Shown here: positions 1 through 14,594 of the stretch, piece after piece
Layout: every line of letters starts with the position of its first letter
Position numbering within the stretch: the stretch's first letter is position 1
Origin: a virus
Taxonomy: Duplodnaviria > Heunggongvirae > Uroviricota > Caudoviricetes
Strand: one strand, 5' to 3'
DNA length: 22,317 bases
Virus record (IMG/VR): IMGVR_UViG_3300035698_011431
Coordinates: 64,001-86,317 of that record
The notes under the pieces: model-generated
What the model was told of the DNA's origin: nothing
The model's database searches: none
Seen by the model: only the letters and a program-made list of their open reading frames with translations
Translations under genes and position numbers: made by a program

Positions 1-639
1 AAGATAAAGAAGTATACAACCTTAGCAGATCAAGTAATTTATCAATCTAAATGGGCAAAGACACATATTGCATGGGGAGAAATACCAAGTAATGGGATAG
101 TAATAACAAATGGAGTAAATCAAGACATATTCAATACGAATGGAGGCGTAAGAGACTTTACAGGAGGTAAGAAGTATAAAGGGGTATATTTGATCCTTAT
201 AAGTAGCTCTGACCCATGTAAGCGATTACATGAGTCATTGCACATATTTGAGCAAACACATAAAAGGACCATAGAAGAAAGTTTTGATCCTGTTAAACTA
301 ATTATTGCTGGAAGGTTACCGGATGAATATCATGTAAGGAAAATGGAATCCAATTGGGATTTTGTAAGAGGGGAAGAGAATGAATACATAGGAGAATTAC
401 ATAGTGCTGAAGAGGTGGCTAAAGTAATGAGAGGGTGTACACATTTATTATTCCCTAGCTACAATGATGCTGCTCCGAATACAGTATTAGAGGCAAGAGC
501 ATGTGGATTGGATGTAATTTATAGTCAAACGGGTGGAACGCCTCAGGTTGCAAGTTTAGAAGGATATAAGATGGGATTGAACGTTATGGTTGAAAATTAT
601 TTTAAATGTTTCGAAAATGTATTAAAAAAACAATGGTAA
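1..639 (+). CDS. GT-B (GT4-like) glycosyltransferase, 5'-truncated by the window edge
   Basis: Frame of ORF 190..639 is open back to base 1 (KIKKYTTLADQVIYQSKWAK...ITNGVNQDIF). C-terminal FPSYNDAAPNTVLEARACGLDVI matches the GT4 E/D-X7-E motif. Confidence 0.8.
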   Translation, partial: KIKKYTTLADQVIYQSKWAKTHIAWGEIPSNGIVITNGVNQDIFNTNGGVRDFTGGKKYKGVYLILISSSDPCKRLHESLHIFEQTHKRTIEESFDPVKLIIAGRLPDEYHVRKMESNWDFVRGEENEYIGELHSAEEVAKVMRGCTHLLFPSYNDAAPNTVLEARACGLDVIYSQTGGTPQVASLEGYKMGLNVMVENYFKCFENVLKKQW

Positions 640-854
640 AGTATTGTAAAAATTGTGCTTATTTCAAACGGGACTTAGATCCAGACATGATTTCTGATGA
701 TAATAGTATATGTAAAGCTACTGAAAATGTTAGCGAAGATATAGGAGATCCGTATGGATATGGGGAAGGGATTCAAGCTTATCATCCCAAGATATTGAAT
801 GCGAATAACAACTGCAAATATTATAAAGTTAAATGGTGGAAAATTTGGATATGA
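633..854 (+). CDS. Small Cys-rich protein (CxxC...C...C) with aromatic/basic C-terminus
   Basis: MVKYCKNCAYF...NNNCKYYKVKWWKIWI. ATG 633 overlaps the upstream stop; similar to 3041..3235. Confidence 0.65.
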   Translation: MVKYCKNCAYFKRDLDPDMISDDNSICKATENVSEDIGDPYGYGEGIQAYHPKILNANNNCKYYKVKWWKIWI

Positions 855-1150
855 AAATACCTAGAACGATATTAATAGGGAATAGTGATTATAAAATCAT
901 TCGAAAAGATTGGGTTTTTAATAAGGTGTTAGGTGGAGAGATAAATTATGATGCAAAAACAATTAAAATCCGAAAAGGAGACAAGGGGATTATGGAGGAT
1001 ACTTTTTTTCACGAAATGGCACATGGGGTAATGAAAGAAATGGAGTATAATTATCCTCAAGTAACAAAATATAGGAATGATGATGATTTTATACAAGAAT
1101 TAGGGTTAACATTACGCAAAACATTTAAAAGCTTATTAGATAATCAATGA
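851..1150 (+). CDS. Small HExxH zincin-like putative metallopeptidase
   Basis: DTFFHEMAHGVM motif preceded by GEINYDAKTIKI; ATG 851 forms an ATGA overlap with the previous stop. Confidence 0.6.
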   Translation: MKIPRTILIGNSDYKIIRKDWVFNKVLGGEINYDAKTIKIRKGDKGIMEDTFFHEMAHGVMKEMEYNYPQVTKYRNDDDFIQELGLTLRKTFKSLLDNQ

Positions 1151-1320
1151 AGCAAATTATAGCTTATATATTAATAAGCCCAATAATTTTCATGATAAGT
1201 TGGGTATTATTTGAAAGGATAATGAAAAGATTAAAACAAGACATTCATGATTGGGCATATATAGCAGTCCCAACATCGATTGTATTAGCAGGATTAGCAT
1301 TAATAGTTTTATCCTTATGA
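1147..1320 (+). CDS. 57-aa two-transmembrane protein (not in the ORF track)
   Basis: MKQIIAYILISPIIFMISWVLFERIMKRLKQDIHDWAYIAVPTSIVLAGLALIVLSL*. ATGA overlaps at both ends (1147-1150 and 1317-1320). Confidence 0.75.
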   Translation: MKQIIAYILISPIIFMISWVLFERIMKRLKQDIHDWAYIAVPTSIVLAGLALIVLSL

Positions 1321-1958
1321 GTTTTTACAGAAATCAATTAGAACAATATTTATCGGAACTGGAAATTAGATGCAATCGTGTACTTGATTGTGGAGGCTCA
1401 GCAAATCCTGTGAATAAAAGAGTTAAATTTTGGGACGTAAAAGACTATAAGATCTTAGATAACAACAACGAAAAAGGATGGCACGATAAATGGAATGAGC
1501 CTGATTATATAATAGATTTGGAAGATATTTGGGAGAATCATGATAGTGAAAATGGATATGAAAATGATCTTGTTGATAAGTTTAGAGGGGAAAGGTTTAA
1601 TTATATTTTTTGTTTAGAGGTTTTTGAATATCTAAGCGATTTTGATCCCTTATTAAATGCCTTCCATGAACTTTTAATTAAGGATAAGAAATATGAGGGA
1701 GGGATATTATATATATCTATTTGCGAAAAATATCCCGTACATAATCCAATCGAGAGTGATTCAAGTAGGCTAACAAAAAAAGGATTTGAGAAGTTGATAA
1801 AGCATCAATTTAAAATATTAGAATGTATCCCCCGCAATTATTCACCAGAAGCCTTTGCTCACATACAAGAAGCATGGAGGATAGATGGACTTAGAGCGGC
1901 GAAACATTTCAAAGGGCATGAGGCAATTGGACATATTTGGAAGCTTAAAAAGATATGA
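1317..1958 (+). CDS. Class I SAM-dependent methyltransferase-like protein
   Basis: VLDCGGS (motif I variant), FNYIFCLEVFEYL, HNPIESDSSRLTKKG. Start moved from 1251 to ATG 1317 because of the upstream coupled ORF. Confidence 0.7.
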   Translation: MSFYRNQLEQYLSELEIRCNRVLDCGGSANPVNKRVKFWDVKDYKILDNNNEKGWHDKWNEPDYIIDLEDIWENHDSENGYENDLVDKFRGERFNYIFCLEVFEYLSDFDPLLNAFHELLIKDKKYEGGILYISICEKYPVHNPIESDSSRLTKKGFEKLIKHQFKILECIPRNYSPEAFAHIQEAWRIDGLRAAKHFKGHEAIGHIWKLKKI

Positions 1959-2248
1959 AAACCGAACTAAGTAAATATATAGAATCGAATATAAAAGCAA
2001 TCGAAGATCCAAAGTTTAGGGGTGACGCTATTCCAACTTGGAAAGGGAATAATGAGTTTATTTATAACAATTTAATGGCAGAAGATATAATTGGATTCAT
2101 GGGAAAAGATAAGAATAAGGTGATAAAAAAGGCTTATTTAGTGTTAAGGGACGGTGAAGTAATTAAGGCGTATAAAGACAAAGCCAGTGCTTTAAATAAT
2201 ATGGAAGGAGGGAATAAATTGCAAACTATTAAGTTCCAAGGATTGTAA
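1955..2248 (+). CDS. Hypothetical protein
   Basis: 97-aa ORF, ATGA-coupled to upstream gene; no motif recognised. Confidence 0.6.
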   Translation: MKTELSKYIESNIKAIEDPKFRGDAIPTWKGNNEFIYNNLMAEDIIGFMGKDKNKVIKKAYLVLRDGEVIKAYKDKASALNNMEGGNKLQTIKFQGL

Positions 2249-2289
2249 AGACCATAGTCTGCGAGAGATATATTTAAATTAAAGAAAAT

Positions 2290-2559
2290 ATGAAATCAAT
2301 GTGTTTAAAAGATTGGAAATCAATGAGTTTCCAAGAGAAGTGGGATTTATATCAAGAATGTTATAAAAAGGCGGTTGTAAGGGTAATGGATAAGGTAGCA
2401 TCTATAAAAGGCAAGAAGATAACCGAAGAGGAGTTTAATGAGAAATTATCCAAACAACAAATGAAGGAATTATTTAAAGTAATAGATATACGGGATTCTT
2501 ATGAATATAAGAACGCAAATAAACACAAGAAAAAGGAATTATTAGAAGAATATAGATGA
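2290..2559 (+). CDS. Hypothetical helical, Lys/Glu-rich protein
   Basis: 89-aa ORF with A-rich leader, ATGA-coupled to next gene. Confidence 0.6.
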   Translation: MKSMCLKDWKSMSFQEKWDLYQECYKKAVVRVMDKVASIKGKKITEEEFNEKLSKQQMKELFKVIDIRDSYEYKNANKHKKKELLEEYR

Positions 2560-3032
2560 ATCCAATGATGTCTGACAAAGAAATAGCCTTGATTGATAAT
2601 CTCTTAAAAGAAAGACAACCTAAGTATTGTTTGGAGTTAGGGGCGGGAGGATCAACGTTACATTTCTCTAGTGCAGTTAATATAGAATACTGGAGATCAA
2701 TAGAGCATAATGGACATTGGTATCATAAGATAAGACCACAGATAAAAGATAATACGGATATAATATGGAATAGAGACGATAAAGAGGACACATATTTCAA
2801 AGAGGCATTGTTATACAAATATGATTTCGTATTGATAGATGGGTTAAATAGGACAAGAGCCATTGAGCTACTACCGGAATTACTGAACAAAGGAGGTTGG
2901 GCATTACTACATGACTCTGGAAGAGAAGAGTATAAAGATGTAAATAAGAAAGGGGAGGTCTTAATAGAAGGGGAGAAGAAACTAGACAATGGGTTTTATG
3001 CACATAGAGGATTAACATTATTTATTAATTAG
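2556..3032 (+). CDS. Class I SAM-dependent methyltransferase (Methyltransf_24-like)
   Basis: CLELGAGGST motif I, SIEHNGHW motif II, YDFVLIDGLNR, ALLHDSGR. Confidence 0.8.
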   Translation: MNPMMSDKEIALIDNLLKERQPKYCLELGAGGSTLHFSSAVNIEYWRSIEHNGHWYHKIRPQIKDNTDIIWNRDDKEDTYFKEALLYKYDFVLIDGLNRTRAIELLPELLNKGGWALLHDSGREEYKDVNKKGEVLIEGEKKLDNGFYAHRGLTLFIN

Positions 3033-3040
3033 ATAAACAA

Positions 3041-3235
3041 ATGAAAACTTATTGTGAAAACTGTAGATATGACAAATTTACTGCAATCCATTGTATTAAG
3101 TGTTTAGAATTAGCGAGGAGTAATGGAGTTAAAAGTATTATAAGAGAAGATCATGATTATGATACAGTTACCTTAAATAAAAACAACGATTGTAAGCACT
3201 ACAAACGTAAATGGTATAAATTCTGGGTTAAATGA
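3041..3235 (+). CDS. Small Cys-rich protein, probable paralogue of 633..854
   Basis: MKTYCENCRY...NKNNDCKHYKRKWYKFWVK. Confidence 0.65.
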   Translation: MKTYCENCRYDKFTAIHCIKCLELARSNGVKSIIREDHDYDTVTLNKNNDCKHYKRKWYKFWVK

Positions 3236-3430
3236 ATGATGAATTGTAAGAATTGTAAATATAGACTTGATTATACTGATAATCATGATTGGGGAACATG
3301 TGAAAATGATAAAGTTGATCTTATGTTCGAGATCGAAGATAAAGACAAGGAATTTATAAGCTTAAAGGCTGGTAGGATTAATAAAGGTTTTGGATGTATA
3401 TATTTTATTAAAAGATCTAAAGCTAAATAA
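3236..3430 (+). CDS. Small Cys-rich protein (CxxC...C...C)
   Basis: MMNCKNCKY...WGTCEN...GFGCIYF; abuts both neighbours with zero gap. Confidence 0.65.
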   Translation: MMNCKNCKYRLDYTDNHDWGTCENDKVDLMFEIEDKDKEFISLKAGRINKGFGCIYFIKRSKAK

Positions 3431-4537
3431 ATGATTAAAATAAACTACAACTCAAAGAAGAGTAAGAAGGGAGCAAAGCATTGCTTTATTTATCGTGGAC
3501 CAAAGATGGAAGAGATCAAGAAAGCTCTAGGTAGGGAGAATCAAGACTTGTGTTTAAAGGTCTTCTTTGATCAAGACAAATTAGACAACTGGGGAGATAA
3601 TCCTAATGGAGACAATCCGAAACATAACACAACAATAAAAGAAGCTACTCAAATACAGAACATATGCTGGTATCATGGATTAGCTCCAAGAGTTTATCAG
3701 ACATTACAAATAGAATGGATAGGGCAATACATAAGAAAGAACGCCAACAAAACTATTATAGGAGAGAATAAGATTTGTGATGCACAGGTAACTGATGATC
3801 TTGGAGAAACTACTGGAACAATTGAAGACTGTCAAAAGATTTGTGGAGAGATAGATAAACTAGGCAAAGAGTATGGGTGGGTATCGAATAGTGCTGAATA
3901 TAAGGGAGCTGACATTATTGGAGGAAAGTTTGTAGACTTCCAGACATTTAATTTAATAGATGATTATAAAGAAAAGATTAAGGATAAATATATAGAATAT
4001 GGAACTTACGGAAAGAAGTATTATCATAACGTACCCGAATTAGATCTTAATGGATGCCCTAGGGAGAATGAGAATAGGGTTAAATGGTTGGGTTTGGATA
4101 AGGTAGATTTTAAGGGGAAGGTAGTTATTGATTATGGATGTGCTAATGGATGGTTTTGTAGGTATATGGATTCAAGAGGAAGTTTAATTGTTAGGGGGGT
4201 TGATACTAAGAATGATTCAATGAAAGATCCAGGCAAGGCGTTCTTTTTAGTGAATAATTATCTAGGTCATTATAATATTAGATTCTCTTATAGAGATTTG
4301 AATAACATATCAGAAGGATCGGGTGATTATGATATAGCATTATTCCTAAGCATGGCTTATCACATTAAAGATATAGGTTTTTTGTCAGACGCCGCAGAGC
4401 TAGTAATAGTAGAAGACAACTCAAAGAACAGAGACGCAAAAGAGAAACTAGAGAAGTTATTTAGCAGGGTAGAACATAAAGGCTTTACTGAGGATAGAAA
4501 CAATTCACATTTGCCAATTTATTATTGTTATAAATAA
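3431..4537 (+). CDS. Fusion of an N-terminal protein-kinase-like domain and a C-terminal class I methyltransferase (WbdD/CmoB-like)
   Basis: Kinase-like: GAKHCFIY, LCLKVF, EATQIQ...HGLAPRVY, KFVDF. Methyltransferase: FKGKVVIDYGCANGWF...RGVD...DYDIALFLSMAYHI. Confidence 0.72.
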   Translation: MIKINYNSKKSKKGAKHCFIYRGPKMEEIKKALGRENQDLCLKVFFDQDKLDNWGDNPNGDNPKHNTTIKEATQIQNICWYHGLAPRVYQTLQIEWIGQYIRKNANKTIIGENKICDAQVTDDLGETTGTIEDCQKICGEIDKLGKEYGWVSNSAEYKGADIIGGKFVDFQTFNLIDDYKEKIKDKYIEYGTYGKKYYHNVPELDLNGCPRENENRVKWLGLDKVDFKGKVVIDYGCANGWFCRYMDSRGSLIVRGVDTKNDSMKDPGKAFFLVNNYLGHYNIRFSYRDLNNISEGSGDYDIALFLSMAYHIKDIGFLSDAAELVIVEDNSKNRDAKEKLEKLFSRVEHKGFTEDRNNSHLPIYYCYK

Positions 4538-4540
4538 ATT

Positions 4541-4750
4541 ATGAAACAAGTACCATTAACTATAAATTATGATCAAAATCCAATAGGCAAAGTTGAATTT
4601 GATGAGAAAGTAGAAAAGCTATTGGCGAGTCATAAATATATTATAGCCCCAGGATTTATAATAAAAGGACAAAATGCTAAAGGGGAAATTAAGGAAATGG
4701 AATTGGTGGAATTATCTATTATTCCGTGGGAGAAATATAATAAAGAATAA
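4541..4750 (+). CDS. 69-aa protein resembling a miniaturised, catalytically dead HK97-type prohead protease
   Basis: VPLTINYDQNPIG and IIAPGF...ELVELSIIP echo the protease N- and C-terminal motifs. The ORF is well supported; the family call is weak. Confidence 0.45.
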   Translation: MKQVPLTINYDQNPIGKVEFDEKVEKLLASHKYIIAPGFIIKGQNAKGEIKEMELVELSIIPWEKYNKE

Positions 4751-5434
4751 ATGAATATAGGAATAATAATATTATATTCAGGGGAAAGGCTATTACAGAA
4801 ATGTTTAGATTCAGTAAAGGATCAATGCAAGAATATTATAATTGTGAGTAATATAAGTCCTTATCATAATGCAATCAATGAATGCTTTAGATTAGGAGTA
4901 AAGAACTTTGATTGGTTTATAGTATTAGATGCGGACACAACTTTAAAAGAAAATGTACTGGAAAGCTATCAAGAGATTATGGAAGACAATTTGTGGTGCA
5001 TTACAGGGCGTCTGGAAGACTATTATCACAAGGAAGGTAGAGATGGAACTATGATGTATAATTCAAAGGTAATAGGGGATTTTAAACATACGGATGATCC
5101 TAATACAGATAGAACAATACACGGGATATTTCATGAGAAAGGATATTCTAAAAAGAAGATAGAAGAGTATGTTGGAGTACATCATCCAGAATGGACATGT
5201 GAAGAAGCATTTAAAAGACATTTCTATTTGGGTACTAGGATAGATGACATGATGGAGTGGAGTGAAAGATTAGGATTCTTGTTTAGAGAAGACGGTCGTG
5301 ATGTGAATAAGGCTGCCTTGTTAGGGTTATATACAGGATTTTATCAACACAAAAGGCCTTTAAATTCAAAAGATGATAGTGATTGGGATAAAGTTAAAGA
5401 TCAATTTAATAATAACGAAATATTAAAATGGTAG
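4751..5434 (+). CDS. GT-A (GT2-like) glycosyltransferase
   Basis: N-terminal IGIIILYSGERLLQKCLDSV and DxD motif FIVLDAD. Confidence 0.75.
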   Translation: MNIGIIILYSGERLLQKCLDSVKDQCKNIIIVSNISPYHNAINECFRLGVKNFDWFIVLDADTTLKENVLESYQEIMEDNLWCITGRLEDYYHKEGRDGTMMYNSKVIGDFKHTDDPNTDRTIHGIFHEKGYSKKKIEEYVGVHHPEWTCEEAFKRHFYLGTRIDDMMEWSERLGFLFREDGRDVNKAALLGLYTGFYQHKRPLNSKDDSDWDKVKDQFNNNEILKW

Positions 5435-6090
5435 TTAAAGAAACGACATATAAAGGAACTAGGATATTATATCAAGAAGAGGCATGGCAGAAAAGGGTAA
5501 TGATAAATACATTTGTAGAATATTTATTAAAGGCTGGATTCGATGAAATCAGTATACCAATAATACAGTATCAGGAAATTTTTAAAGCTAAAGTAGGGGA
5601 AGAGAATAATAATTTAATGTTTAAATTTAAAGATCGTGGACATAGGGACTTATGTTTAGCCCCTGAATATACAGCCATAATCCAGAAACTTAGTCAGGGA
5701 ATATTTAGAAAAGGAAAAGATGTGAAACTGTTTTATATTCAAGAATGTTTTAGAGGGGAGAAACCACAAGCAGGTAGATATAGACAATTTACACAACTCG
5801 GCGTTGAGATTTTGCATCCTAAATGTGATTATACTGAGGATTTACTATCATTGGCAGAAAACTTATTAAAGGTAATAGGGATTGGAGGTTATAATATAAA
5901 TAGAGATCAAAAGAGGGGGCTTGATTATTATAAAGATGGCAAAGGGTTCGAAATTGAATATTCAGATCTGGGTACTCAGAAACAAATCATTGGAGGTGGT
6001 CAATATGAAGGCGGAACAGGTTTCGCAATAGGTGTCGATAGATTATTAGAAATAAAATTAGACAAATGCAAAGAACACGAGAACAAATAA
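5428..6090 (+). CDS. hisS: Minimal histidyl-tRNA synthetase-like protein (catalytic core only)
   Basis: KGTR N-terminus, LAPEYTA, motif 2 FRGEKPQAGRYRQFTQLGVE, RGLDYY, GGGQYEGG, motif 3 GFAIGVDRL. Insertion domain and anticodon-binding domain absent. Confidence 0.9.
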   Translation: MVVKETTYKGTRILYQEEAWQKRVMINTFVEYLLKAGFDEISIPIIQYQEIFKAKVGEENNNLMFKFKDRGHRDLCLAPEYTAIIQKLSQGIFRKGKDVKLFYIQECFRGEKPQAGRYRQFTQLGVEILHPKCDYTEDLLSLAENLLKVIGIGGYNINRDQKRGLDYYKDGKGFEIEYSDLGTQKQIIGGGQYEGGTGFAIGVDRLLEIKLDKCKEHENK

Positions 6091-6632
6091 TAAATACTAG
6101 ATATCAAGATGATTTCGAAGTAGCTAAATGGATTGATCAAAATATCAAAGGAAAATCTATTGGAGATTTGGGTTGTGGTTGGGGTGTAATAATAAGCGGA
6201 TTAAAGAATAGAGGATGGGATGTTTGGGGGGTAGATATATCAATAGAGGGAATCGCTTCTAATGTCATAGAATGTGTTAGGTCGGTCGATTTATCAAAAG
6301 AGGTATATTTGCACAAAGCTGATATTGCAATGTCTCTAGAGGTCGCTGAGCATCTCCCAAGGGGTTCTGAGGATATCTTTATAAAGAACTTAATGAAGTT
6401 GAATGCAGAAACAATAATAATGACGGTTGCAACCCTAGGGCAAGAAGCTAAGTCTCATACAAATATAAAACCCAGAAGGATGTGGATAGAAAAGATAGAA
6501 GCACAAGGATACAAGGAGAATGAAGCAATGGAATATAAGTTTAAGAAAGATTTGGAGGGGAAATTGGAGATTAAAGCGTGGTATAGCTGGAACATTATGA
6601 TATTTAATAAAAAAATTAATGAAAAAAGATAA
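6066..6632 (+). CDS. Class I SAM-dependent methyltransferase
   Basis: IGDLGCGWG, WGVDIS, ADIAMSLEVAEHLP, ATLGQEAKSHTN. Confidence 0.85.
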   Translation: MQRTREQIINTRYQDDFEVAKWIDQNIKGKSIGDLGCGWGVIISGLKNRGWDVWGVDISIEGIASNVIECVRSVDLSKEVYLHKADIAMSLEVAEHLPRGSEDIFIKNLMKLNAETIIMTVATLGQEAKSHTNIKPRRMWIEKIEAQGYKENEAMEYKFKKDLEGKLEIKAWYSWNIMIFNKKINEKR

Positions 6633-6780
6633 ATTGTTTTATTATTCATTAGGACAGAGGGATGCGATAGCATCAGCATTGGCTATCTATGAAGGGAAAA
6701 TAAAATTAAACCATTTAGCACAGGATTATAGAAAGATTTATGGAGAAGAACATTTTAGTCATAAATGGCATACAAAATAA
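6619..6780 (+). CDS. 53-aa hypothetical protein (not in the ORF track)
   Basis: MKKDKLFYYSLGQRDAIASALAIYEGKIKLNHLAQDYRKIYGEEHFSHKWHTK*; overlaps the upstream stop and fills an otherwise unexplained gap. Confidence 0.6.
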   Translation: MKKDKLFYYSLGQRDAIASALAIYEGKIKLNHLAQDYRKIYGEEHFSHKWHTK

Positions 6781-6793
6781 CATACAGTTAAGA

Positions 6794-6799
6794 TATAAT
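6794..6799 (+). promoter_or_regulatory. Possible -10 hexamer (TATAAT) upstream of the AAA ATPase
   Basis: Perfect TATAAT in a 50-bp intergenic gap. No -35 match, and the background is AT-rich. Confidence 0.2.
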
Positions 6800-6830
6800 G
6801 ATATTTAAAAAAAAATAATTATTAATAATA

Positions 6831-7853
6831 ATGAATATAAAGCAAACTAAGAAATATTTTAAAGAGTTAATAGGTTCAAATCAACATGAGTCAATAATGT
6901 TGTGGGGAGGACCAGGGATCGGGAAGAGCCAAGGGATTAAACAAGTGGCGAAAGAATTAAATGCTGATTTAATAGATTTAAGATTATCATTATTAAACCC
7001 TGTTGATTTAAGGGGATTGCCATTTATAGATAAAGCTAAACAAGAGGCTTCATGGCTTAAGCCTACATTTTTGCCAAAAACAGATAAGTTAACAATCTTA
7101 TTCTTAGATGAAATAAATTTAGCACCTTTATCTGTTCAGTCGGCAGCTTATCAATTGATATTAGACAGAAAGATAGGGGAATATGAGGTTCCTAATAATA
7201 CTTTTATTATAGCGGCAGGGAATAGGATGGAAGACAGAGCACATGTAACAGAATTCCCGGCACCTTTGGCTAATAGATTTATACACATAAATGTTGATCC
7301 TGATTATGATTCATGGAGAGATTGGGCAGTTAAGGAGGATGTTAATGAAAAGATTATATCTTTCTTATCAAATGATCCTGAATATTTATATAAGAAACCA
7401 AAGAAAGGAATCAAGGCATTTCCTACTCCGAGGAGTTGGGAGTTTGCTAGTAAAAATTTGAAAATAGATAAGACCATGAGAAAAGAAGTATTAGGTGGGA
7501 TTATTGGAGAGGAAGCAACAAATCAATTCTATTCTTGGGTACGGATATATAAGGATTTACCAGATATAGATAAAATTTTAGATGGGAGCATGATAGATAA
7601 AAGTGGATTCTTTAAGAAGGTAGATGTACCAAGCAGAAATGATATCTTATCAACTCTTGCAATATCATTAGGATTAAGGAGTAAGGTGAATAACTTTGAT
7701 AATGTAGTTAAGTATATAGATTATATGCCTAAAGAATATCAATTGCTTTATATTAATGTAGTTTTAAATGGACAACATGAAGATAAATTCAGATTAAGTG
7801 AAGCGTGGAAAGAATGGGATAAAAAAAATAAAGATTTATTAAATGACTTATAA
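6831..7853 (+). CDS. AAA+ ATPase (MoxR/AAA_5-like)
   Basis: Walker A GGPGIGKS, Walker B ILFLDEIN, sensor AAGNR, arginine finger PAPLANRF. Confidence 0.92.
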   Translation: MNIKQTKKYFKELIGSNQHESIMLWGGPGIGKSQGIKQVAKELNADLIDLRLSLLNPVDLRGLPFIDKAKQEASWLKPTFLPKTDKLTILFLDEINLAPLSVQSAAYQLILDRKIGEYEVPNNTFIIAAGNRMEDRAHVTEFPAPLANRFIHINVDPDYDSWRDWAVKEDVNEKIISFLSNDPEYLYKKPKKGIKAFPTPRSWEFASKNLKIDKTMRKEVLGGIIGEEATNQFYSWVRIYKDLPDIDKILDGSMIDKSGFFKKVDVPSRNDILSTLAISLGLRSKVNNFDNVVKYIDYMPKEYQLLYINVVLNGQHEDKFRLSEAWKEWDKKNKDLLNDL

Positions 7854-8364
7854 TATAATTGATAAAGATGATCAGGAATTAGATGTAATTGGAAAGAAAA
7901 GTAAAGAGCTTTTCATTCATTCCATGTTTCCTCCTTCGAAGATGTTACATATCAATACCCACAAAGAACAGGTAGAGGGAAAAGCTTTAAGGAAAGTATC
8001 AAGGGAATCAATATGGGCAAAGAATCTCCAAGGCGGACTATATTCTCATATGTTTTCAACGAGTTCTGTGGGTTTTCAAGACCATGAGGATCGCAAAGAG
8101 ACATGTATGTGTTGCGGGGAAGAAATAGATTATGGGAATGTATGTACAAAATGCCAATCATATTTAAGTAAGGCACAAATAGAACATTTAGATAATTATT
8201 GTGATAAATGTGATGAATATTTAGCTGAATGTGAACATCGCCCAGAGGATTTCTTTGTAGAGGCTTTTAAAGGGATAAATAAAGGGAATAGATGTGATAG
8301 TTGTGGGGTACACCCAAGTCAATGTGAATGCGAACATAATTTAGATGCTAATAAAATCAAATGA
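7843..8364 (+). CDS. Cys-rich putative multi-zinc-binding protein
   Basis: CMCC...CTKC, CDKCDEYLAECEH, CDSCGVHPSQCECEH. Confidence 0.6.
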   Translation: MTYNIIDKDDQELDVIGKKSKELFIHSMFPPSKMLHINTHKEQVEGKALRKVSRESIWAKNLQGGLYSHMFSTSSVGFQDHEDRKETCMCCGEEIDYGNVCTKCQSYLSKAQIEHLDNYCDKCDEYLAECEHRPEDFFVEAFKGINKGNRCDSCGVHPSQCECEHNLDANKIK

Positions 8365-9488
8365 AAATAGATATAGCAAAATTTAAGATACTTAAGGAAA
8401 GACCTTTGTATGGAAAATTACTATATTATTTGAATTTTAAAAGAGAAGATAGCATTGAAACGCTAGGTGTAGATGGGGATGACAACCTTTATTATAACCA
8501 AGGATATTGGGATTCATTAAAGGGTGAAGAGCAGAAGTTTGTTTTATGTCATGAAGTTATGCATCTAGCGTTAAAACATTTATGGAGGGAGAAAGCAAAA
8601 GATCATGTGAAATGGAACATTGCCTGTGATTACGCTATTAATCAGTTAATAGATTATAGCCCTCCTAAGAATATATTATTAAGCGGGAAATATATAAATA
8701 AATGTGCTGAGGAAATATATAAATTATTGAAAGACAAGAAACAAAAAGGATTTGATAACCATAGTAAATGGGGAGATAAAAGTGAAAAGAAAAACAAGAT
8801 AAAGGGGAAGTCAAAGGGAGAAATAGAAACTACAAAAGAGAAGCAAGATAAGTGGGATGAAAGGACACAAACTGCTGTTAAATATTCAGAAGGGAAACAG
8901 AAAGGAACCGGATCAATATTAAAAGGATTGGGATTGGAATTCTTGGATGAATATAACAGTTATAAAGATATTCTATTGAGGTATGTAGATAATAAAGAAG
9001 ATGATTATGATTTTTATAAAGCAGACAGAAGATTTTTAGATCAAGAATATATTTTGCCATCATTCGCAGAGAAAGAAGTATTAAATTGGATTGCTATAAT
9101 AATTGATACAAGTGGATCGATAAGTCATGAAACATTATGGAAGTTTATAACCGATGTAAGGGGAATTATAAATGAATTTGATGAAGTAAAGGTAAAGTTA
9201 GCTTTTGCAGATGATCAGGTTTCTAAGTTTTATGATATAAATAAAATAGAAGATATCCCTCAATGTTATGGTGGGGGAGGGACTGATTTTAGACCAGCAA
9301 TAGCTAAAGTTAATAAGATGGATAATGCCCCTAAAGCATTGTTTTATTTTACAGATGGATATGGTGACTTTCCAAGGAAAGAGGATAGTAATGGGTATGA
9401 TACGTATTGGGTTATTACGGAATTAGAATCATTCTTAGGAGAAAAGATAACAGTCCCTTATGGAGAATTATTAAAATTTAAAGATTAA
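8361..9488 (+). CDS. Metallopeptidase-like plus vWA domain protein (DUF2201-type)
   Basis: LCHEVMHL (HExxH), WNIACDYAIN, MIDAS IIDTSGS, GGGGTDF, FYFTDGYG. Confidence 0.88.
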   Translation: MKIDIAKFKILKERPLYGKLLYYLNFKREDSIETLGVDGDDNLYYNQGYWDSLKGEEQKFVLCHEVMHLALKHLWREKAKDHVKWNIACDYAINQLIDYSPPKNILLSGKYINKCAEEIYKLLKDKKQKGFDNHSKWGDKSEKKNKIKGKSKGEIETTKEKQDKWDERTQTAVKYSEGKQKGTGSILKGLGLEFLDEYNSYKDILLRYVDNKEDDYDFYKADRRFLDQEYILPSFAEKEVLNWIAIIIDTSGSISHETLWKFITDVRGIINEFDEVKVKLAFADDQVSKFYDINKIEDIPQCYGGGGTDFRPAIAKVNKMDNAPKALFYFTDGYGDFPRKEDSNGYDTYWVITELESFLGEKITVPYGELLKFKD

Positions 9489-9492
9489 GGGA

Positions 9493-9768
9493 ATGATTTA
9501 TTATTATGCAAAGACTAAATTGAATATGGGTATAATCAAAGAACCCGAAGACTTCGTAAAGGCATGGAAAAGTTTTAATGGATATCAAATCAGTGATGAA
9601 CTTCATGATAAGAGAAGACCAAACTGGAAGAATATGGATAGAATACAAAAAGCATTTGTAATGAAATGGGGTAGATGTTTTAGAGGGATAGTAAACCCAA
9701 CTTGTTGGAACAATTTAAATCCAGAAAATTATAAACAATTTGTAGATTTTGATATATATTACGAATGA
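9493..9768 (+). CDS. Hypothetical protein
   Basis: 91-aa ORF, ATGA-coupled to next gene. Confidence 0.6.
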   Translation: MIYYYAKTKLNMGIIKEPEDFVKAWKSFNGYQISDELHDKRRPNWKNMDRIQKAFVMKWGRCFRGIVNPTCWNNLNPENYKQFVDFDIYYE

Positions 9769-10616
9769 ATACATCATTTAAAACAAGCATTATAACTACA
9801 GCTACTATAAATACACCATATAGAAACGACCCTTGGAAGGAAGCTATAAGATGTTATTTAGATTTTGCTGATGAGGTAATAGTAGTTTGTGGTCATCATA
9901 AAGATATACAAACAATTACAGAAGAGTTCGGAGATAACAAGAAATTAGTTTTAAATTATATGGATTGGCCATATAAATGGAACTGGATAGAATTGCCTAA
10001 GCATATGAATAGAGGGTTGGAGCTTGCTACTAAAGAGGTTATAATAAGGATGGACATTGATTATTTTATACATGAGAAAGACTTTAAGGAATTCAAGGAA
10101 CAATTAAAAGTGTTTTATGAGTCAGGGGATCTGATAGCAAAGACTTTAAAGGTGAATGTAATGAATAAGTATAATGGAATGATAAAGAGTAGAAATGCAA
10201 ATGTCATAAATGGTAGGAGGAAAGACGCAATAAGATTCGGAAAAGCAGAGAATAAGGAGACAGATTGGACAGTCCCGACAATAAATATCGGAAGTTGTAA
10301 GAAGCCGAAGTATATTGCATTTGAGGAGGCTGATAGTAAATTATTGAGAACATGGATATATAATTATGATTATTTCTTTTGTACTAAAAGAGATGTACAA
10401 AAAGAGTTCTGGAGGTTTGCACAAGCATATTCAGCTGCATTTATAAAATCATGGGGTGCAACTGAAGAAGAGGCATATGATAAATGGATAAGAATGCAAA
10501 CAGGACGTTTATTAAAGGCAGGGGAAGAAATAGATCATCCTAAATATATAAAGAAGCGGATAGATAAGATGCCGAGAGAAGAATGGGGGTATTGCAATTG
10601 GGATTTAATAAAATGA
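9765..10616 (+). CDS. GT-A (GT2-like) glycosyltransferase
   Basis: AIRCYLDFADEVIVVCG, NRGLELAT, DxD motif IIRMDID. Confidence 0.75.
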   Translation: MNTSFKTSIITTATINTPYRNDPWKEAIRCYLDFADEVIVVCGHHKDIQTITEEFGDNKKLVLNYMDWPYKWNWIELPKHMNRGLELATKEVIIRMDIDYFIHEKDFKEFKEQLKVFYESGDLIAKTLKVNVMNKYNGMIKSRNANVINGRRKDAIRFGKAENKETDWTVPTINIGSCKKPKYIAFEEADSKLLRTWIYNYDYFFCTKRDVQKEFWRFAQAYSAAFIKSWGATEEEAYDKWIRMQTGRLLKAGEEIDHPKYIKKRIDKMPREEWGYCNWDLIK

Positions 10617-11047
10617 GGAAAGATAAGCAGATAATAAACAATAATATAGAGATGAGATTGGCTAGGGAAACTGGAGTGGATGAACGGGACAATTTATTGA
10701 AAAGGATGGGATGTTTCAAGAAAAGGATTAAAGATATACCTCCTTATATTGAAAATGACATAGAACAAGTAATTAATCCTTGGTTAGTATACAAGATGGA
10801 ATGTGAGATGGGGTTTCCAAGAGAGATATTCTTTGAACTATTTGCAGATCAAAACGACATAGAATGCGAAGAGTATTGGAGTGATTGGTGTGATATGTGG
10901 CTTGATGATTTTAAAAAGGCCAACCATAAACTACTATTTAATAGTAAGTGGATGATAAAAGGGATAATAGATAATGAATTAAAAGAATATGCTGTGAACA
11001 AGGGGATATATGAAGAAATATTAGAAACTAAAAAGAAATATCATTAA
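10613..11047 (+). CDS. Hypothetical protein
   Basis: Start moved to ATG 10613 (ATGA overlap with upstream stop); no motif recognised. Confidence 0.6.
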   Translation: MRKDKQIINNNIEMRLARETGVDERDNLLKRMGCFKKRIKDIPPYIENDIEQVINPWLVYKMECEMGFPREIFFELFADQNDIECEEYWSDWCDMWLDDFKKANHKLLFNSKWMIKGIIDNELKEYAVNKGIYEEILETKKKYH

Positions 11048-11059
11048 TTATATGAATAA

Positions 11060-12067
11060 ATGAGAGTATTACAAGTCGTGGATTGCAAGTTTTGGGCCCT
11101 AGATAATTTAGTAAAATCAATAAACAAAAACTTAGAAGACAGGTTTGATATCTCGACAATATATATACATCCAAGAGAAGTTTCGGCAGGATTAGTTTCT
11201 ATTCATCAAGAGATAAGGAAAGGAATAGATGTGATTAATTTCCATTATTGGAGAACGGCTACCCAATTAATGGTATTAATTCCAGATTTAATGTTATATC
11301 CAAGGATATTAAGTCATTGGAATCATGAAAGTTTGGAAAAAGAAAGTTGGAAGAAATTTGGATATTTAACCCATCCAACTAAATACGGCAAAAACTTGCT
11401 AAGCAAAGATCATTCAAATGTAACAAGAATTCCAATGGGAATTGATTTGAGTCGATATAGTTATATCCCAGATGATCTTTATAGGAAGACAAGCAAGGAG
11501 ATAGCAATAGGATATATTGGACGAGTAGCAGATTGGAAGAACTTACATTTCATTTGTGAATGTTGTAAAGAATTAGGATATAAGGTAATAGCTTCAGGAT
11601 ATATTGATAAACCTGAATATTGGAAGAAAGAAGTGGAGCAATATGCAAATGATGGCACGCTAGAAATGAATGGAGGTATGGGTAGGGGCGAAATGATGGG
11701 AGCAATCTTTAAGGACAATCTATATAAGAGAATGACTGTATTAGCAATGGCTAGTGAAGGGGAATATGAAAGCGGTCCACTAGGTCCACAAGAGGCGATG
11801 GCAAGAGGTATTCCAGTATTAGCTACAGAAAAAGGCACATTAAAAGATAGGGGAGAAGATGGAAAGAATATAGTATTTTTTAAGGAAAATAATAAAAAAG
11901 ATTTTAAGGATAAATTGAAGGACTTAGTTGAAAATGAAGAGAAGAGGATGACTATAAGAAAACATGGATGGGAAACAGCAAAACAATTTCCAGAGAAACG
12001 AATGGCAATAGAGTTCGGGAAGTTGTATTATCAAGTCAACAGCGAATTCCAAAAACAAGGGGGGTGA
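11060..12067 (+). CDS. GT-B (GT4) glycosyltransferase
   Basis: IGYIGRVADWKN and E-X7-E motif ESGPLGPQEAMARGIPVLAT. Confidence 0.88.
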   Translation: MRVLQVVDCKFWALDNLVKSINKNLEDRFDISTIYIHPREVSAGLVSIHQEIRKGIDVINFHYWRTATQLMVLIPDLMLYPRILSHWNHESLEKESWKKFGYLTHPTKYGKNLLSKDHSNVTRIPMGIDLSRYSYIPDDLYRKTSKEIAIGYIGRVADWKNLHFICECCKELGYKVIASGYIDKPEYWKKEVEQYANDGTLEMNGGMGRGEMMGAIFKDNLYKRMTVLAMASEGEYESGPLGPQEAMARGIPVLATEKGTLKDRGEDGKNIVFFKENNKKDFKDKLKDLVENEEKRMTIRKHGWETAKQFPEKRMAIEFGKLYYQVNSEFQKQGG

Positions 12068-12073
12068 TGCTAA

Positions 12074-12265
12074 ATGTTTATTGAAGCGTTTTTAATCGAC
12101 AAAACAGGACATATAATTAGTGCAAATGCAAAGGAAAATGATTTTATTGCAAATGCAGTGATTACATTTCTAAAGAGTGGACAAAGTCAATTAGTAAAAG
12201 AAAATATTGATGATGCCCTCAAAGATGTGAATCGTATCAAAATTAACATTGAAGTTGTAGTATAA
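12074..12265 (+). CDS. Hypothetical protein
   Basis: 63-aa ORF in the operon direction. Confidence 0.55.
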   Translation: MFIEAFLIDKTGHIISANAKENDFIANAVITFLKSGQSQLVKENIDDALKDVNRIKINIEVVV

Positions 12266-12298
12266 AGGCTTCCTCCCTCTGAGCCTTAATCAGAGGGA
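12265..12298. other. Intergenic GC-rich inverted repeats with two alternative stems
   Basis: tccctctga (12274-82) pairs with tcagaggga (12290-98); alternatively aaggct (12265-70) pairs with agcctt (12282-87). Confidence 0.6.
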
Positions 12299-12342
12299 AA
12301 TTTCTATAAAGTAAGACTGGGTAGAATTAATAAAATAAGAAC

Positions 12343-12975
12343 ATGGAATTGATTAGTATTGTATTACCGACACACGAAAGACCAATAGAATTATCTAAAA
12401 TTCTACTTAGTATTGAAAAGAATAAGTATCCTGCGAAAGAAATAATAGTAATAGATACAGGGTTGCGAGATAAGGGATTAACAAGGAAGTTAATAGATAA
12501 GTTTAAGCCAAAATTCAAAACAAACATTCTATATCTAGATACTTGTCAGGAAGGATACGATTTAGCTATGGCAAGAAATATGGGAGTGGCTGAATCAATG
12601 GGAAGTATATTAATGTTTCTGGATGATAGATATGAATTAGATGAAGATGTTCTAGGGAAAATAGCTGAAGATGTAAATGAAAACACATGGCATTATGGAA
12701 AAAAAAGGATCAAAGGAAAGATAATTCATGAAAGACCATTTATAGAAAACTTTAGTTGGTTATATAAGAAAGAGTTTAGGAAGTTCGGTTGTTTTAATGA
12801 AAGAATTAATATGTATGGAGGGATGAGCCAAGATGTTAGGGAAAGGTGGCAGGCAATAGGGAATAAGTTCAAACAAGAAGATATATATGTTACTGAGATA
12901 GCGAGTTCGAAATCCAATCATGACAAGGAAGGAATATGGAAGATGAAGTATTTGCTTTATAGATTGAATAATTAA
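12343..12975 (+). CDS. GT-A (GT2) glycosyltransferase
   Basis: ISIVLPTHER, LAMARNMGV, LMFLDDR (DxD variant), GCFNE. Confidence 0.85.
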   Translation: MELISIVLPTHERPIELSKILLSIEKNKYPAKEIIVIDTGLRDKGLTRKLIDKFKPKFKTNILYLDTCQEGYDLAMARNMGVAESMGSILMFLDDRYELDEDVLGKIAEDVNENTWHYGKKRIKGKIIHERPFIENFSWLYKKEFRKFGCFNERINMYGGMSQDVRERWQAIGNKFKQEDIYVTEIASSKSNHDKEGIWKMKYLLYRLNN

Positions 12976-12978
12976 ATA

Positions 12979-13290
12979 ATGAAAACAGAAATAACCAAAG
13001 AAGAAATACAAAAGATAAAAGAAAAGTATTTATTATTGACTTATGATCTTTGGTTTTTTAGATATAAGAAGCCAGGTAAACAATGGTATGAGTTAACAGA
13101 TTATCTTAGGGATAATATGATAAAAGAAGGATTGATAGTTGAGTATGATGACAAAGAGAAAACGGTATATGTATTTGATAGTGCCAATGGAAAATTCCCT
13201 ATGAATATATCTTATAGAATAAAAGAGGGGAGATTAGTAAAAGAATTTAAAAAAGTTAGTGAAGATAAATGGGAACCTATTTATTATTAA
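12979..13290 (+). CDS. Hypothetical protein
   Basis: 103-aa ORF with A-rich leader. Confidence 0.6.
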   Translation: MKTEITKEEIQKIKEKYLLLTYDLWFFRYKKPGKQWYELTDYLRDNMIKEGLIVEYDDKEKTVYVFDSANGKFPMNISYRIKEGRLVKEFKKVSEDKWEPIYY

Positions 13291-13294
13291 TTTA

Positions 13295-13390
13295 ATAAGC
13301 AAAAAGTGTACAATCACTAGGTTCTAATAATTAAGGCAGCGTACACTTCCTTAATCAATTAGAATCTACTGATTAAAATTAAATGCTTAT
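13295..13390 (+). ncRNA. Candidate structured cis-element (long hairpin plus alternative pairing)
   Basis: Arms 13312-13336 and 13349-13374 are near-complementary; 13304-11 pairs with 13341-48; 13295-13301 pairs with 13384-90. Confidence 0.45.
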
Positions 13391-13392
13391 GA

Positions 13393-14586
13393 ATGAAGGA
13401 AGACTTATTTGATAAAGAAGGAAAGTTACAAAGAAAAATAAAAATTTTAGATATCACTTGGCATGTGATGCATCAAACTCACATGATAAGTGCTTTAAAA
13501 AATGATTGTGAGTTTTATTACTTATTAACCTCATGGAGGTCATGGCACGACAAGAGATTTTCAAGTGTTAGGGAAGTTCCTGAGGAGATTAATTGGATAT
13601 CAAGATACGAACCTGGGAAATATGATGTAGCTATATTGCATGTAGATCAAGCATCAATTGATCAAAAGACTGGTAAATATAAAATGCTACATGAGATAGA
13701 TGAACAAATACAAGATATTCCAAAAATAATATTAAATCATGGCAGTCCTGTAGACCCTGAATCGGGGATGCTTAAACAACCGGGAGATACGAATGAACAG
13801 GCACAAGAAAAATGTATCAAAATGATGAAGAAATTGTTACATGGTATGCCAATGGTAGTAAATTCTTATACGGCTGCATCTGACAAGGAATGGGGATGGG
13901 GAACACCGATAATTCATGGGATGCCTCATTTTACAGAAAAGGAAGGGAAAGAAATAAAACAATCATATAAAGAAAAGCTAGAAAAAGATAAATTTTATAC
14001 TATAGAAGAAGCATATATTGAATATGAAAAGAAAATAGGAAAACAAGGTTGGTGGGATCTCTTGAAAGAACCAAGATTATTCTCTGCATTAAGTCCTGGC
14101 GGATGGGCTACTTATTATAATCGAGATGTAATGTTAGCCCTTGTAGGGATCTTAAAAGATGATTACGGGTATCCTTTTTATTGGTGTAAAACATGTTTTC
14201 ATAGGACGAGGACAATGTTTCATCCATCAAATTTTAATGATTATAGAAGCTACTTAGGAAGGTCTTTGATATATTTTGATCCATCAATAAGGACTCCAAT
14301 GAATAGAGCTAGGAGTGAAGCTTTTTTTTCAGGGTGTTGTGTTGTACAAGTAGAAGGAGCGCATGATCTAGAGCGTTGGGCAAAGAATGGTGAGAATATA
14401 ATAATAGTTCCAAATAATCCAAAAGAAATAGCAAAAACATTAGTAGACTTAGTTGAAAATAGATATGAGGAAGCTATGGAAATAGGACAAAGGGGAAAGG
14501 AAATGGCAATGAAAGAATTCAATCCGACTAGATATCGACAAAATTGGATGGATGTTTTTGAAAAAGTATTAAAACCAATTAAATAA
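13393..14586 (+). CDS. GT-B glycosyltransferase-like protein
   Basis: ILDITWHVMH N-terminus, YDVAILH; C-terminal IYFDPSIRTPMNRARSEAFFSGCCVV...IGQRGKEMA typical of the GT-B donor-binding domain. Confidence 0.72.
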   Translation: MKEDLFDKEGKLQRKIKILDITWHVMHQTHMISALKNDCEFYYLLTSWRSWHDKRFSSVREVPEEINWISRYEPGKYDVAILHVDQASIDQKTGKYKMLHEIDEQIQDIPKIILNHGSPVDPESGMLKQPGDTNEQAQEKCIKMMKKLLHGMPMVVNSYTAASDKEWGWGTPIIHGMPHFTEKEGKEIKQSYKEKLEKDKFYTIEEAYIEYEKKIGKQGWWDLLKEPRLFSALSPGGWATYYNRDVMLALVGILKDDYGYPFYWCKTCFHRTRTMFHPSNFNDYRSYLGRSLIYFDPSIRTPMNRARSEAFFSGCCVVQVEGAHDLERWAKNGENIIIVPNNPKEIAKTLVDLVENRYEEAMEIGQRGKEMAMKEFNPTRYRQNWMDVFEKVLKPIK

Positions 14587-14594
14587 TAAAAACT

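Follow-up and report, generated by a model that had tools for sequence, protein, structure and literature searches.

A short histidyl-tRNA synthetase gene in a tailed phage belongs to a family without insertion and anticodon-binding domains

The window analysed here (22,317 nucleotides, positions 64,001 to 86,317 of IMG/VR virus record IMGVR_UViG_3300035698_011431, Caudoviricetes) carries a gene for a 220-residue histidyl-tRNA synthetase (HisRS), hereafter mini-HisRS, which retains the class II catalytic core with its histidine-binding loops and lacks both the insertion domain and the anticodon-binding domain. The gene and its elements are:

5428-6090, plus strand: mini-HisRS gene, with ATG start, 220 aa, one intact frame and no frameshift
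5542-5571, plus strand: motif 1 and dimer interface, residues 39-48 with Pro44 (kept in 32 of 35 short representatives); coincides with the predicted homodimer interface
5632-5646, plus strand: DRGHR loop, residues 69-73, equivalent to the G-1 pocket 70'DRGGR74' of Thermus thermophilus HisRS, second Gly replaced by His
5659-5673, plus strand: APEYT loop, residues 78-82, with E80 and T82 equivalent to Escherichia coli E83 and T85; intein site in relative P0122
5740-5808, plus strand: motif 2 and its loop, residues 105-127 (R109, E111, K112, Q114, R117, R119, F121, Q123, E127)
5878-5883, plus strand: junction of residues 151/152, where canonical HisRS has an insertion domain of ~100 aa
5914-5931, plus strand: HisA loop RGLDYY, residues 163-168, with R163 equivalent to E. 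coli R259
5992-6006, plus strand: HisB loop GGGQY, residues 189-193, with Y193 equivalent to E. coli Y288
6019-6045, plus strand: motif 3 GFAIGVDRL, residues 198-206, with R205 as the motif 3 Arg
6049-6090, plus strand: non-conserved 13-residue tail and stop, containing a 25-nt overlap with the next gene

A catalytic core without appendages

The Pfam model tRNA-synt_His matches residues 13-155 of mini-HisRS (4.4e-20), a class II core model matches as well, and the hisS model TIGR00442 matches in two stretches (3.8e-42), its 144.7 bits lying below the cut-off of 286.75 because the protein has half the usual length. Alignment to E. coli HisRS (1kmm) pairs query residues 20-153 with 22-158 and 146-196 with 243-291, leaving E. 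coli residues ~159-242 without a counterpart. Relative to 30 canonical HisRS, a median of 100.5 residues (the insertion domain) is missing between query residues 151 and 152, and 108.5 residues (linker and anticodon-binding domain) are missing after residue 207; the C-terminus lies 13 residues past motif 3, and no Pfam match to the HGTP anticodon-binding domain PF03129 is found in the protein. An earlier note, made from the letters of the window, had described a protein that keeps its histidine- and ATP-binding motifs, has its helical insertion domain cleanly removed and ends right after motif 3, and this description holds throughout: APEYT, FRGEKPQAGRYRQF..LGVE (residues 108-127), RGLDYY, GGGQY and GFAIGVDRL are all found, as is the junction string VIGIGGYNINRDQKRGLDYY (residues 149-168) at the ~100-aa gap.

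All 11 catalytic residues that were checked are kept in mini-HisRS, numbered by alignment on E. coli HisRS (query E80=E83, T82=T85, R109=R113, R117=R121, F121=F125, Q123=Q127, E127=E131, R163=R259, Y168=Y264, Y193=Y288 and R205=motif 3 Arg). Class II motifs 1-3 (P44, R109, R117, R205) and the histidine-specific TXE loop, HisA and HisB (E80, T82, R163, Y167, Y168, G190, G191, Y193) are present, and the nine motif 2 residues listed above correspond, in the same order, to E. coli R113, E115, R116, Q118, R121, R123, F125, Q127 and E131. The full set of 11 occurs in 25 of 35 diverse short representatives, ~6 of the 35 having lost several. Catalysis itself requires the arginines of motifs 2 and 3, whose role goes beyond histidine binding.

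Residues that approach the tRNA acceptor end are also largely kept in the motif 2 loop. In T. thermophilus HisRS, R115, Q117 and R122 of this loop touch the acceptor end (PMC4357726), and the loop Gln (Gln123 in the numbering of PMC3937112) interacts specifically with the G-1:C73 pair (PMC3937112); the query equivalents are K112, Q114 and R119, and among the 35 short representatives position 112 is R/K in 29, position 114 is Q in 30 and position 119 is R in 31.

The AlphaFold2 model of mini-HisRS (53-sequence alignment) has a mean pLDDT of 90.4 and a pTM of 0.88, and its top PDB fold matches are E. coli HisRS chains (2el9; TM 0.82 over the query), followed by stand-alone catalytic domains of pyrrolysyl-tRNA synthetase (PylRS; TM ~0.7). 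A homodimer that meets along motif 1 and the N-terminal strand is predicted (ipSAE 0.85 versus 0.00 for the best control, partner pLDDT 86, at least 94% of contacts common between runs), with 20 of 30 proteins whose solved structures are pairs, and 1 of 23 whose solved structures are single chains, attaining the mark. Mini-HisRS is probably homodimeric on this model, although the score may reflect memory of solved HisRS dimers and so speaks for likeness to them, not for binding by mini-HisRS itself.

The short HisRS family and its tRNA-His context

A length-restricted search recovers 1,610 short homologues at E<=1e-5, with identity down to ~35%; the best 120 of these 1,610 are mostly 205-225 aa long (up to 293), and the 119 best relatives other than the query itself are 59-68% identical to it. 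The query shares the family traits of ~200-225 aa, no insertion domain and an end within ~30 residues of motif 3, and in the alignment of short forms family proteins terminate 1-28 residues beyond query position 207. Among representatives at 50% identity, ~45 short clusters matched in a single stretch rank before the first canonical HisRS (~420 aa, matched in two stretches), and a tree of 35 short and 45 canonical HisRS shows one branch (SH-aLRT 99) that splits the two forms, with the query on the short side. Because one branch separates them, the short architecture may have had a single origin. Homologues in such numbers, forming many clusters and a branch of their own, are not the sporadic degrading fragments that the earlier note had considered, and mini-HisRS is, judged by these comparisons, a family under selection and not a decaying fragment.

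Close relatives lie on IMG/VR contigs of 31 kb to 676 kb, on two uncultured phage genomes of 635-642 kb and on the cultured 469-kb Sinorhizobium phage Phosso, and only two matches were found among 185,579 species genomes, both on contigs of metagenome-assembled genomes. PHROGs has no family for mini-HisRS at E<=0.001. Family proteins carry the database name histidyl-tRNA synthetase, a full-text literature search found no paper on the short HisRS family, its activity or its frameshift, and Al-Shayeb et al. 2020 treat phage tRNA synthetases in general terms only. The metagenomic relative P0122 (564 aa) contains an intein within the histidine-binding loop, between APEY and T (Intein_splicing 2e-13, LAGLIDADG_3; first residue Cys, last His-Asn, then Thr), and no Pfam domain is found in the extensions at the N- and C-termini of P0128, P0136 and P0141. 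One copy (L032:10001-10544) has lost ~40 residues, the APEYT loop among them, changes frame and is probably decayed. On a 131-kb groundwater phage contig (L006:8642-9852), mini-HisRS is followed by a histidine-phosphatase-family gene and a gene with an RF-1 domain (ArfB/peptidyl-tRNA hydrolase-like), with a phosphoribosyl pyrophosphate synthetase 3 kb upstream.

The surroundings of the relatives were surveyed for tRNA genes within ~3 kb of mini-HisRS in 62 loci dereplicated at 90% nucleotide identity. A tRNA gene is present in 29 of these loci and tRNA-His in 20; no tRNA lies closer than tRNA-His in 7 of the 29, and 27 of all 235 tRNAs are tRNA-His. The distinct tRNA-His genes have G at -1 in 23 of 28 cases, versus 5 of 219 other tRNAs, and C73 in 22 of 28. 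The earlier note had proposed asking whether short homologues co-occur with glycosyltransferase clusters or with tRNA genes, and it is with tRNA genes that they do. A 482-kb phage (L021) has, in this order, tRNA-Trp, tRNA-His, tRNA-His, mini-HisRS and a class I Trp/Tyr (W/Y) synthetase of 243 aa (Pfam 1.1e-36) that starts 3 nt downstream of mini-HisRS. Such shorter-than-usual Trp/Tyr-type synthetases (~240 aa) stand beside or near mini-HisRS in three loci (L021:10609-11340, L002:1417-2136, L029:8296-9015).

Phage Phosso carries a tRNA-His with G-1, G1:C72 and C73 ~300 nt upstream of mini-HisRS, and both the motif 2 loop Gln and the G-1 pocket's GG dipeptide are present in its mini-HisRS. Its host Sinorhizobium belongs to the Rhizobiales, whose tRNA-His has A73 and no templated G-1 and whose HisRS carries Gly where the motif 2 Gln would stand (PMC3937112); for Caulobacter HisRS, an enzyme of this type, recognition depends on the anticodon, A73 and U72 (PMC3064791). 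A mini-HisRS/tRNA-His pair of Phosso that works beside the host system would be a coherent reading of these features. Four further loci (L123, L124, L127 and L128) have, within 1.5 kb on either side of mini-HisRS, a G-1:C73 tRNA-His together with a tRNA-His that lacks G-1 and has A73; the latter shows the alphaproteobacterial RRCH pattern.

In 15 distinct loci, including Phosso, the first ~27 codons (MLRGTR...) are joined to the rest of the gene by a putative +1 shift at (C/G)TT-CA(T/C). Relatives that need such a shift lie at the following positions:

L001:4022-4664: mini-HisRS relative with putative frameshift
L115, L117, L119, L123-L128, L130 and L132-L137, near 2920-3600: mini-HisRS relatives with putative frameshift

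These relatives are 40-47% identical to the query. Their zero frame stops 0-12 codons after the site, a GGAGG/GGGGG-like run lies upstream of the site in most of the 15 loci, and the joined products (203-213 aa) align to the query without gaps across the junction and contain no His, the His codon at the shift site being the only one of the gene. The GenBank coding sequence of Phosso begins at an internal codon and thus misses the first ~27 codons. His is also absent from 86 of 114 close intact relatives of the query, and its frequency in these 114 is 0.15% versus 1.77% in neighbouring phage open reading frames (ORFs); canonical HisRS average 1.7 His over the corresponding columns. Translation that is completed only upon a stall at a His codon, and a protein free of His, would fit an enzyme that restores His-tRNA-His, as the sequences of these relatives suggest. 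Taken together, tRNA context, private pairs, frameshift and His depletion in the relatives suggest tRNA-His as the substrate. The predicted isoelectric point (8.2 for the query, 6.4 for close relatives, 5.3 for the frameshift type) follows no trend, and charge was rejected as a sign of compensating RNA binding.

Neighbouring genes and the phage genome

The following genes of the window are referred to below:

4751-5434, plus strand: upstream neighbour, gene of the glycosyltransferase family 2 (GT2) type (Pfam 4.2e-06); no homologue beside relatives
6066-6632, plus strand: downstream neighbour, class I S-adenosylmethionine (SAM) methyltransferase-like gene; no homologue beside relatives
15847-18504: portal gene

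Mini-HisRS overlaps the GT2-like ORF by 7 nt (ATGGTAG, 5428-5434) and the methyltransferase ORF, for which no alternative in-frame ATG exists, by 25 nt (6066-6090), exactly as the earlier note had read; from this it had gone on to propose a functional coupling to both neighbours, and here the comparison with relatives speaks otherwise. A tblastn search with ten neighbour proteins of the window against 31 related loci gave no homologue, only mini-HisRS itself being matched. GT2 genes are absent within 10 kb of mini-HisRS in 19 other phage records, where those present lie at least 14 kb away and mostly much farther. All-versus-all clustering of 899 ORFs from 27 loci shows no conserved protein neighbour within 4 kb, the only recurrent one being the mini W/Y synthetase in 3 loci. 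Overlaps of 4-34 nt occur at ~13 of the ~27 co-oriented junctions in the window, and the overlapped 3' end of mini-HisRS encodes the tail that is not conserved in the family. Because the neighbours are not conserved, overlaps are common and the overlapped tail is variable, the position of mini-HisRS between the two genes is probably a matter of gene packing, not of a pathway, and looks incidental; coupling as a family trait is rejected. The query copy is an ordinary intact member of the family in an unusual but probably meaningless neighbourhood, and for this window the tie to glycan modification is to be dropped.

Positions 1-15482 of the window form a long co-oriented run of glycosyltransferase- and methyltransferase-like ORFs 5' of the portal gene, those starting at 4751, 9765, 12343, 13393 and 14595 being among the ones with weak or absent Pfam/PHROGs matches. 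The window also holds a MoxR-type AAA ATPase (6831-7853) and a DUF2201 metallopeptidase-VWA protein (8361-9488).

The window is the last 22 kb of the 86,317-b record, whose final 127 b repeat its first 127 b, consistent with its IMG/VR class of direct terminal repeats and a CheckV completeness estimate of 100%. Tailed-phage genes are present (major capsid, tail tube, tape measure, Dit, large terminase and portal), and M15 peptidase and SLT domains among the predicted proteins suggest a peptidoglycan-bearing host. The phage stretch occurs in several salt-lake metagenomes, and four further salt-lake runs yield identical pieces, the contigs from such runs being short, low-depth identical pieces together with motif 2 regions of other organisms. 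Searches of the complete genome at E<=1 gave no match to PF03129 anywhere, so that the separately encoded anticodon-binding partner contemplated in the earlier note is not found, and none to HisG (PF01634); a class I W/Y synthetase (PF00579) is likewise absent. With no PF03129 in the genome and no conserved neighbour over 27 loci, a trans-acting partner protein was rejected.

The only two tRNA genes of the phage are tRNA-Tyr(GUA) and a tRNA-like gene. The former (genome 27242-27314, L034:7242-7314) has C1:G72, A73, a short variable arm and G as its -1 base; C1:G72, A73 and a short variable arm are the archaeal/eukaryal tRNA-Tyr pattern, in contrast with the peptidoglycan hydrolases encoded by the same phage. 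The latter (genome 35086-35156, L034:15086-15156; Rfam tRNA, 40.3 bits) has a 6-nt anticodon loop and no anticodon assignment by ARAGORN.

An Rnl1-like ligase (RNA_lig_T4_1), a polynucleotide kinase-phosphatase (PNKP; AAA_33 and HAD_PNKP) and an Rnl2-like RNA ligase with a PHA02142 OB fold are adjacent at genome 46405-49430 (L035:6405-9427) and make up a T4-style RNA/tRNA break-repair set; given these three enzymes, the phage probably meets tRNA-cutting defences. Rnl1 co-occurs with mini-HisRS in only 1 of 19 other records, and a link to tRNA repair was rejected as a family trait; that mini-HisRS charges anticodon-cleaved or non-cognate tRNA, as the earlier note had imagined, is speculation. 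Other genes include a TROVE/Ro60-like protein with a vWA domain (genome 57442-58845, L035:17442-18842), with no Y-RNA-like gene found by Rfam in the phage, a GIY-YIG/NUMOD3 homing endonuclease directly 3' of the major capsid gene (genome 4376-5245, L033:4376-5242), and a row of radical SAM (QueE-like), QueC and GTP cyclohydrolase I genes (genome 52019-54403, L035:12019-14400) that forms a preQ0 synthesis cluster. This 7-deazaguanine cluster could serve DNA modification or queuosine; Q34 is normally carried by tRNA-His and tRNA-Tyr.

Possible roles and comparison with known systems

Mini-HisRS is most probably (roughly 0.6) a working minimal HisRS that charges tRNA-His via the acceptor end. The enzyme would make histidyl-adenylate from bound histidine and ATP and pass the histidine on to A76 of tRNA-His. 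Recognition would be confined to the acceptor end, where the motif 2 loop and a loop from the other subunit would contact G-1:C73 and the 5' phosphate, and the anticodon would go unread. The substrate in the query phage would be host tRNA-His, because this phage has no tRNA-His gene of its own, and during infection mini-HisRS would raise or safeguard the amount of His-tRNA-His. Such a mode is consistent with the dependence of HisRS mainly on G-1:C73 and the 5' phosphate, the anticodon being a weak determinant in E. coli, and with the use of mini- and microhelices as HisRS substrates (PMC4357726). The same source, citing Augustine & Francklyn, gives the E. coli catalytic domain alone ~0.6% of the aminoacylation efficiency, and HisRS fragments of 119-145 residues activate histidine (PMC3060492). 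Of the interpretation in the earlier note, the natural and intact catalytic-core HisRS stands, with no anticodon partner in the genome and no mark of a degrading fragment, and the coupling to a glycosyltransferase and a methyltransferase is unsupported.

Several observations weigh against charging. Both appendages by which HisRS grips its tRNA are gone from mini-HisRS, and the E. coli fragment with the 0.6% figure reportedly still contained the insertion domain. This domain clamps the acceptor stem in the T. thermophilus HisRS-tRNA complex, in which the G-1 pocket was also defined (PMC4357726); the GG dipeptide of that pocket is replaced by G71-H72 in the query and is GN in 74, GD in 22 and GG in only 8 of 115 close relatives, GG being found in 16 of 30 canonical HisRS. 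Glu64, essential in T. thermophilus HisRS, corresponds to Leu63 in the query and to L/M/Q across the short forms. Neither tRNA-His nor any tRNA beyond the two described was found by Rfam in the complete 86-kb genome, and five other CheckV-complete genomes with mini-HisRS (42-85 kb) are also without tRNA-His. Because the query has 3 His (residues 72, 130 and 217) and a single open frame, the arguments from frameshift and His depletion rest on its relatives. Finally, most core-only paralogues of aminoacyl-tRNA synthetases (aaRS), such as HisZ, YadB and the amino acid:carrier-protein ligases, do not charge tRNA (PMC9437257).

Core-only paralogues of this kind are precedents for two other roles. 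Mini-HisRS might activate histidine as a ligase for a non-tRNA acceptor (a phage glycan sugar, a protein or a small molecule), comparable to MshC, EpmA or the amino acid:carrier-protein ligases, the second option of the earlier note, and its place in a glycosyltransferase- and methyltransferase-like run, its overlap with both neighbours, the frequent use of non-tRNA acceptors by core-only aaRS paralogues (PMC9437257) and its two diverged acceptor-end contacts would all suit such a role. However, the GT2, methyltransferase and other neighbours have no homologue in the related loci, no protein neighbour is conserved and no GT2 is close by, the acceptor-stem readers in the motif 2 loop are conserved, and the tRNA-His context and His-codon frameshift of the relatives point to tRNA; with the neighbour coupling gone, decoration of a glycan or protein is unsupported, and a ligase of any kind is improbable. 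Similarly unlikely is a non-charging binder or modulator resembling HisZ or Gcn2, that is, a histidine sensor, a binder of uncharged tRNA-His or a partner of host HisRS through motif 1, which would alter host HisRS activity or the host starvation response. The conserved motif 1 interface and predicted dimer, the precedent of HisZ as a HisRS paralogue without an anticodon-binding domain, and the loss of catalytic residues in 6 of 35 short representatives are in its favour, but a pure binder could dispense with R163 (E. coli R259) and with the ATP-binding arginines of motifs 2 and 3, all of which are retained in the query and in most relatives. HisZ itself has no adenylation activity (PMC9437257), the genome has no HisG, and the HisZ model TIGR00443 gives mini-HisRS 82.3 bits, below its cut-off of 271.65.

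Two readings fare worse still. Class II synthetases including HisRS form diadenosine tetraphosphate (Ap4A) from aminoacyl-adenylate, and a tRNA-independent maker of histidyl-adenylate feeding such dinucleoside polyphosphates, with host signalling or RNA capping altered, would profit from the loss of tRNA-binding domains that favours this side reaction. No context points to nucleotide signalling, however, and tRNA-His neighbourhoods, conserved acceptor-stem readers and His-codon frameshift would be left unexplained, which makes it very unlikely. A functionless remnant of a captured hisS gene could account for the half-normal length and has a parallel in the decayed relative with its ~40-residue internal loss and frame change, but the ORF is unbroken and encodes every catalytic residue, homologues of like length number more than 1,600 and extend down to ~35% identity, the domain boundaries are clean, the fold is confident and identical pieces recur in the four further salt-lake runs, so that this reading is close to refuted by the family data.

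If tRNA-His charging is the role of mini-HisRS, a more tentative extension would make the family a phage 'rescue' synthetase for a shortage of charged tRNA-His, brought about by host shut-down, by a defence against tRNA-His or HisRS, or by a phage tRNA-His that the host enzyme does not charge. The acceptor-end-only design, the His-free composition of many members and the +1 frameshift sensor at a His codon in others would then be one strategy. This is doubtful as yet, and if true it would provide natural minimal orthogonal HisRS/tRNA-His pairs and present-day examples of an 'operational RNA code' in the acceptor stem, as has been proposed for early synthetases. If active, the family enzymes of ~210 residues would be the smallest natural histidyl-tRNA synthetases, and a class II core alone, without insertion and anticodon-binding domains, would sustain specific tRNA charging in nature, for which the case has so far been made chiefly with urzymes and engineered fragments. 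The family would offer compact parts for orthogonal translation as well, the pair of the Rhizobiales phage looking orthogonal to the host system, and the putative frameshift and His-free composition of the relatives suggest a feedback, not described before, by which the ribosome would sense charged tRNA-His. The gene in this window truly belongs to the mini-HisRS family.

Canonical bacterial HisRS (class IIa; E. coli 1KMM/1HTT/2EL9, T. thermophilus 4RDX/1ADJ) have in common with mini-HisRS the fold, motifs 1-3, the TXE, HisA and HisB loops, and the motif 2 loop residues, and a dimer interface like theirs is predicted for mini-HisRS; mini-HisRS differs in lacking the ~100-aa insertion domain and the ~108-aa linker and anticodon-binding domain, in the changed second Gly of the G-1 pocket and Glu64 equivalent, and in scoring below the TIGR00442 cut-off. 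PylRS without the N-terminal tRNA-binding domain (Methanomethylophilus alvus type, ~275 aa) is likewise a natural stand-alone class II catalytic domain and charges its tRNA without reading the anticodon, but it uses another amino acid and tRNA and is only distantly related in sequence to mini-HisRS (E ~1e-6). The E. coli catalytic-domain fragment and the HisRS urzymes (PMC4357726; PMC3060492) are cores without the anticodon-binding domain that activate histidine, the larger E. coli fragment also charging tRNA at the low efficiency given above. These are laboratory constructs, whereas mini-HisRS is natural and conserved, is of intermediate size (220 aa; urzymes have 119-145 aa), is without the insertion domain as well and retains motif 3 and both His loops.

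HisZ, the regulatory subunit of short-form ATP phosphoribosyltransferase, is a HisRS paralogue without the anticodon-binding domain, but it retains the insertion region (~310-390 aa by NCBIfam model lengths), works with HisG and has no adenylation activity (PMC9437257), while mini-HisRS keeps its catalytic residues in a genome without HisG. EpmA/PoxA, the amino acid:carrier-protein ligases and MshC are also aaRS reduced to the catalytic core; they derive from LysRS, SerRS/GlyRS or CysRS and adjoin the genes of their acceptors or pathways, unlike mini-HisRS, whose best match is HisRS and which has no conserved partner gene over the 27 loci. The putative frameshifting of the relatives, in contrast to the plain ORF of the query, has its closest counterpart in the autoregulatory +1 frameshift of prfB (release factor 2): the sensed codon in the relatives is His and not UGA, and the two share (C/G)UU before the sensed codon and a Shine-Dalgarno-like run 3 nt upstream.

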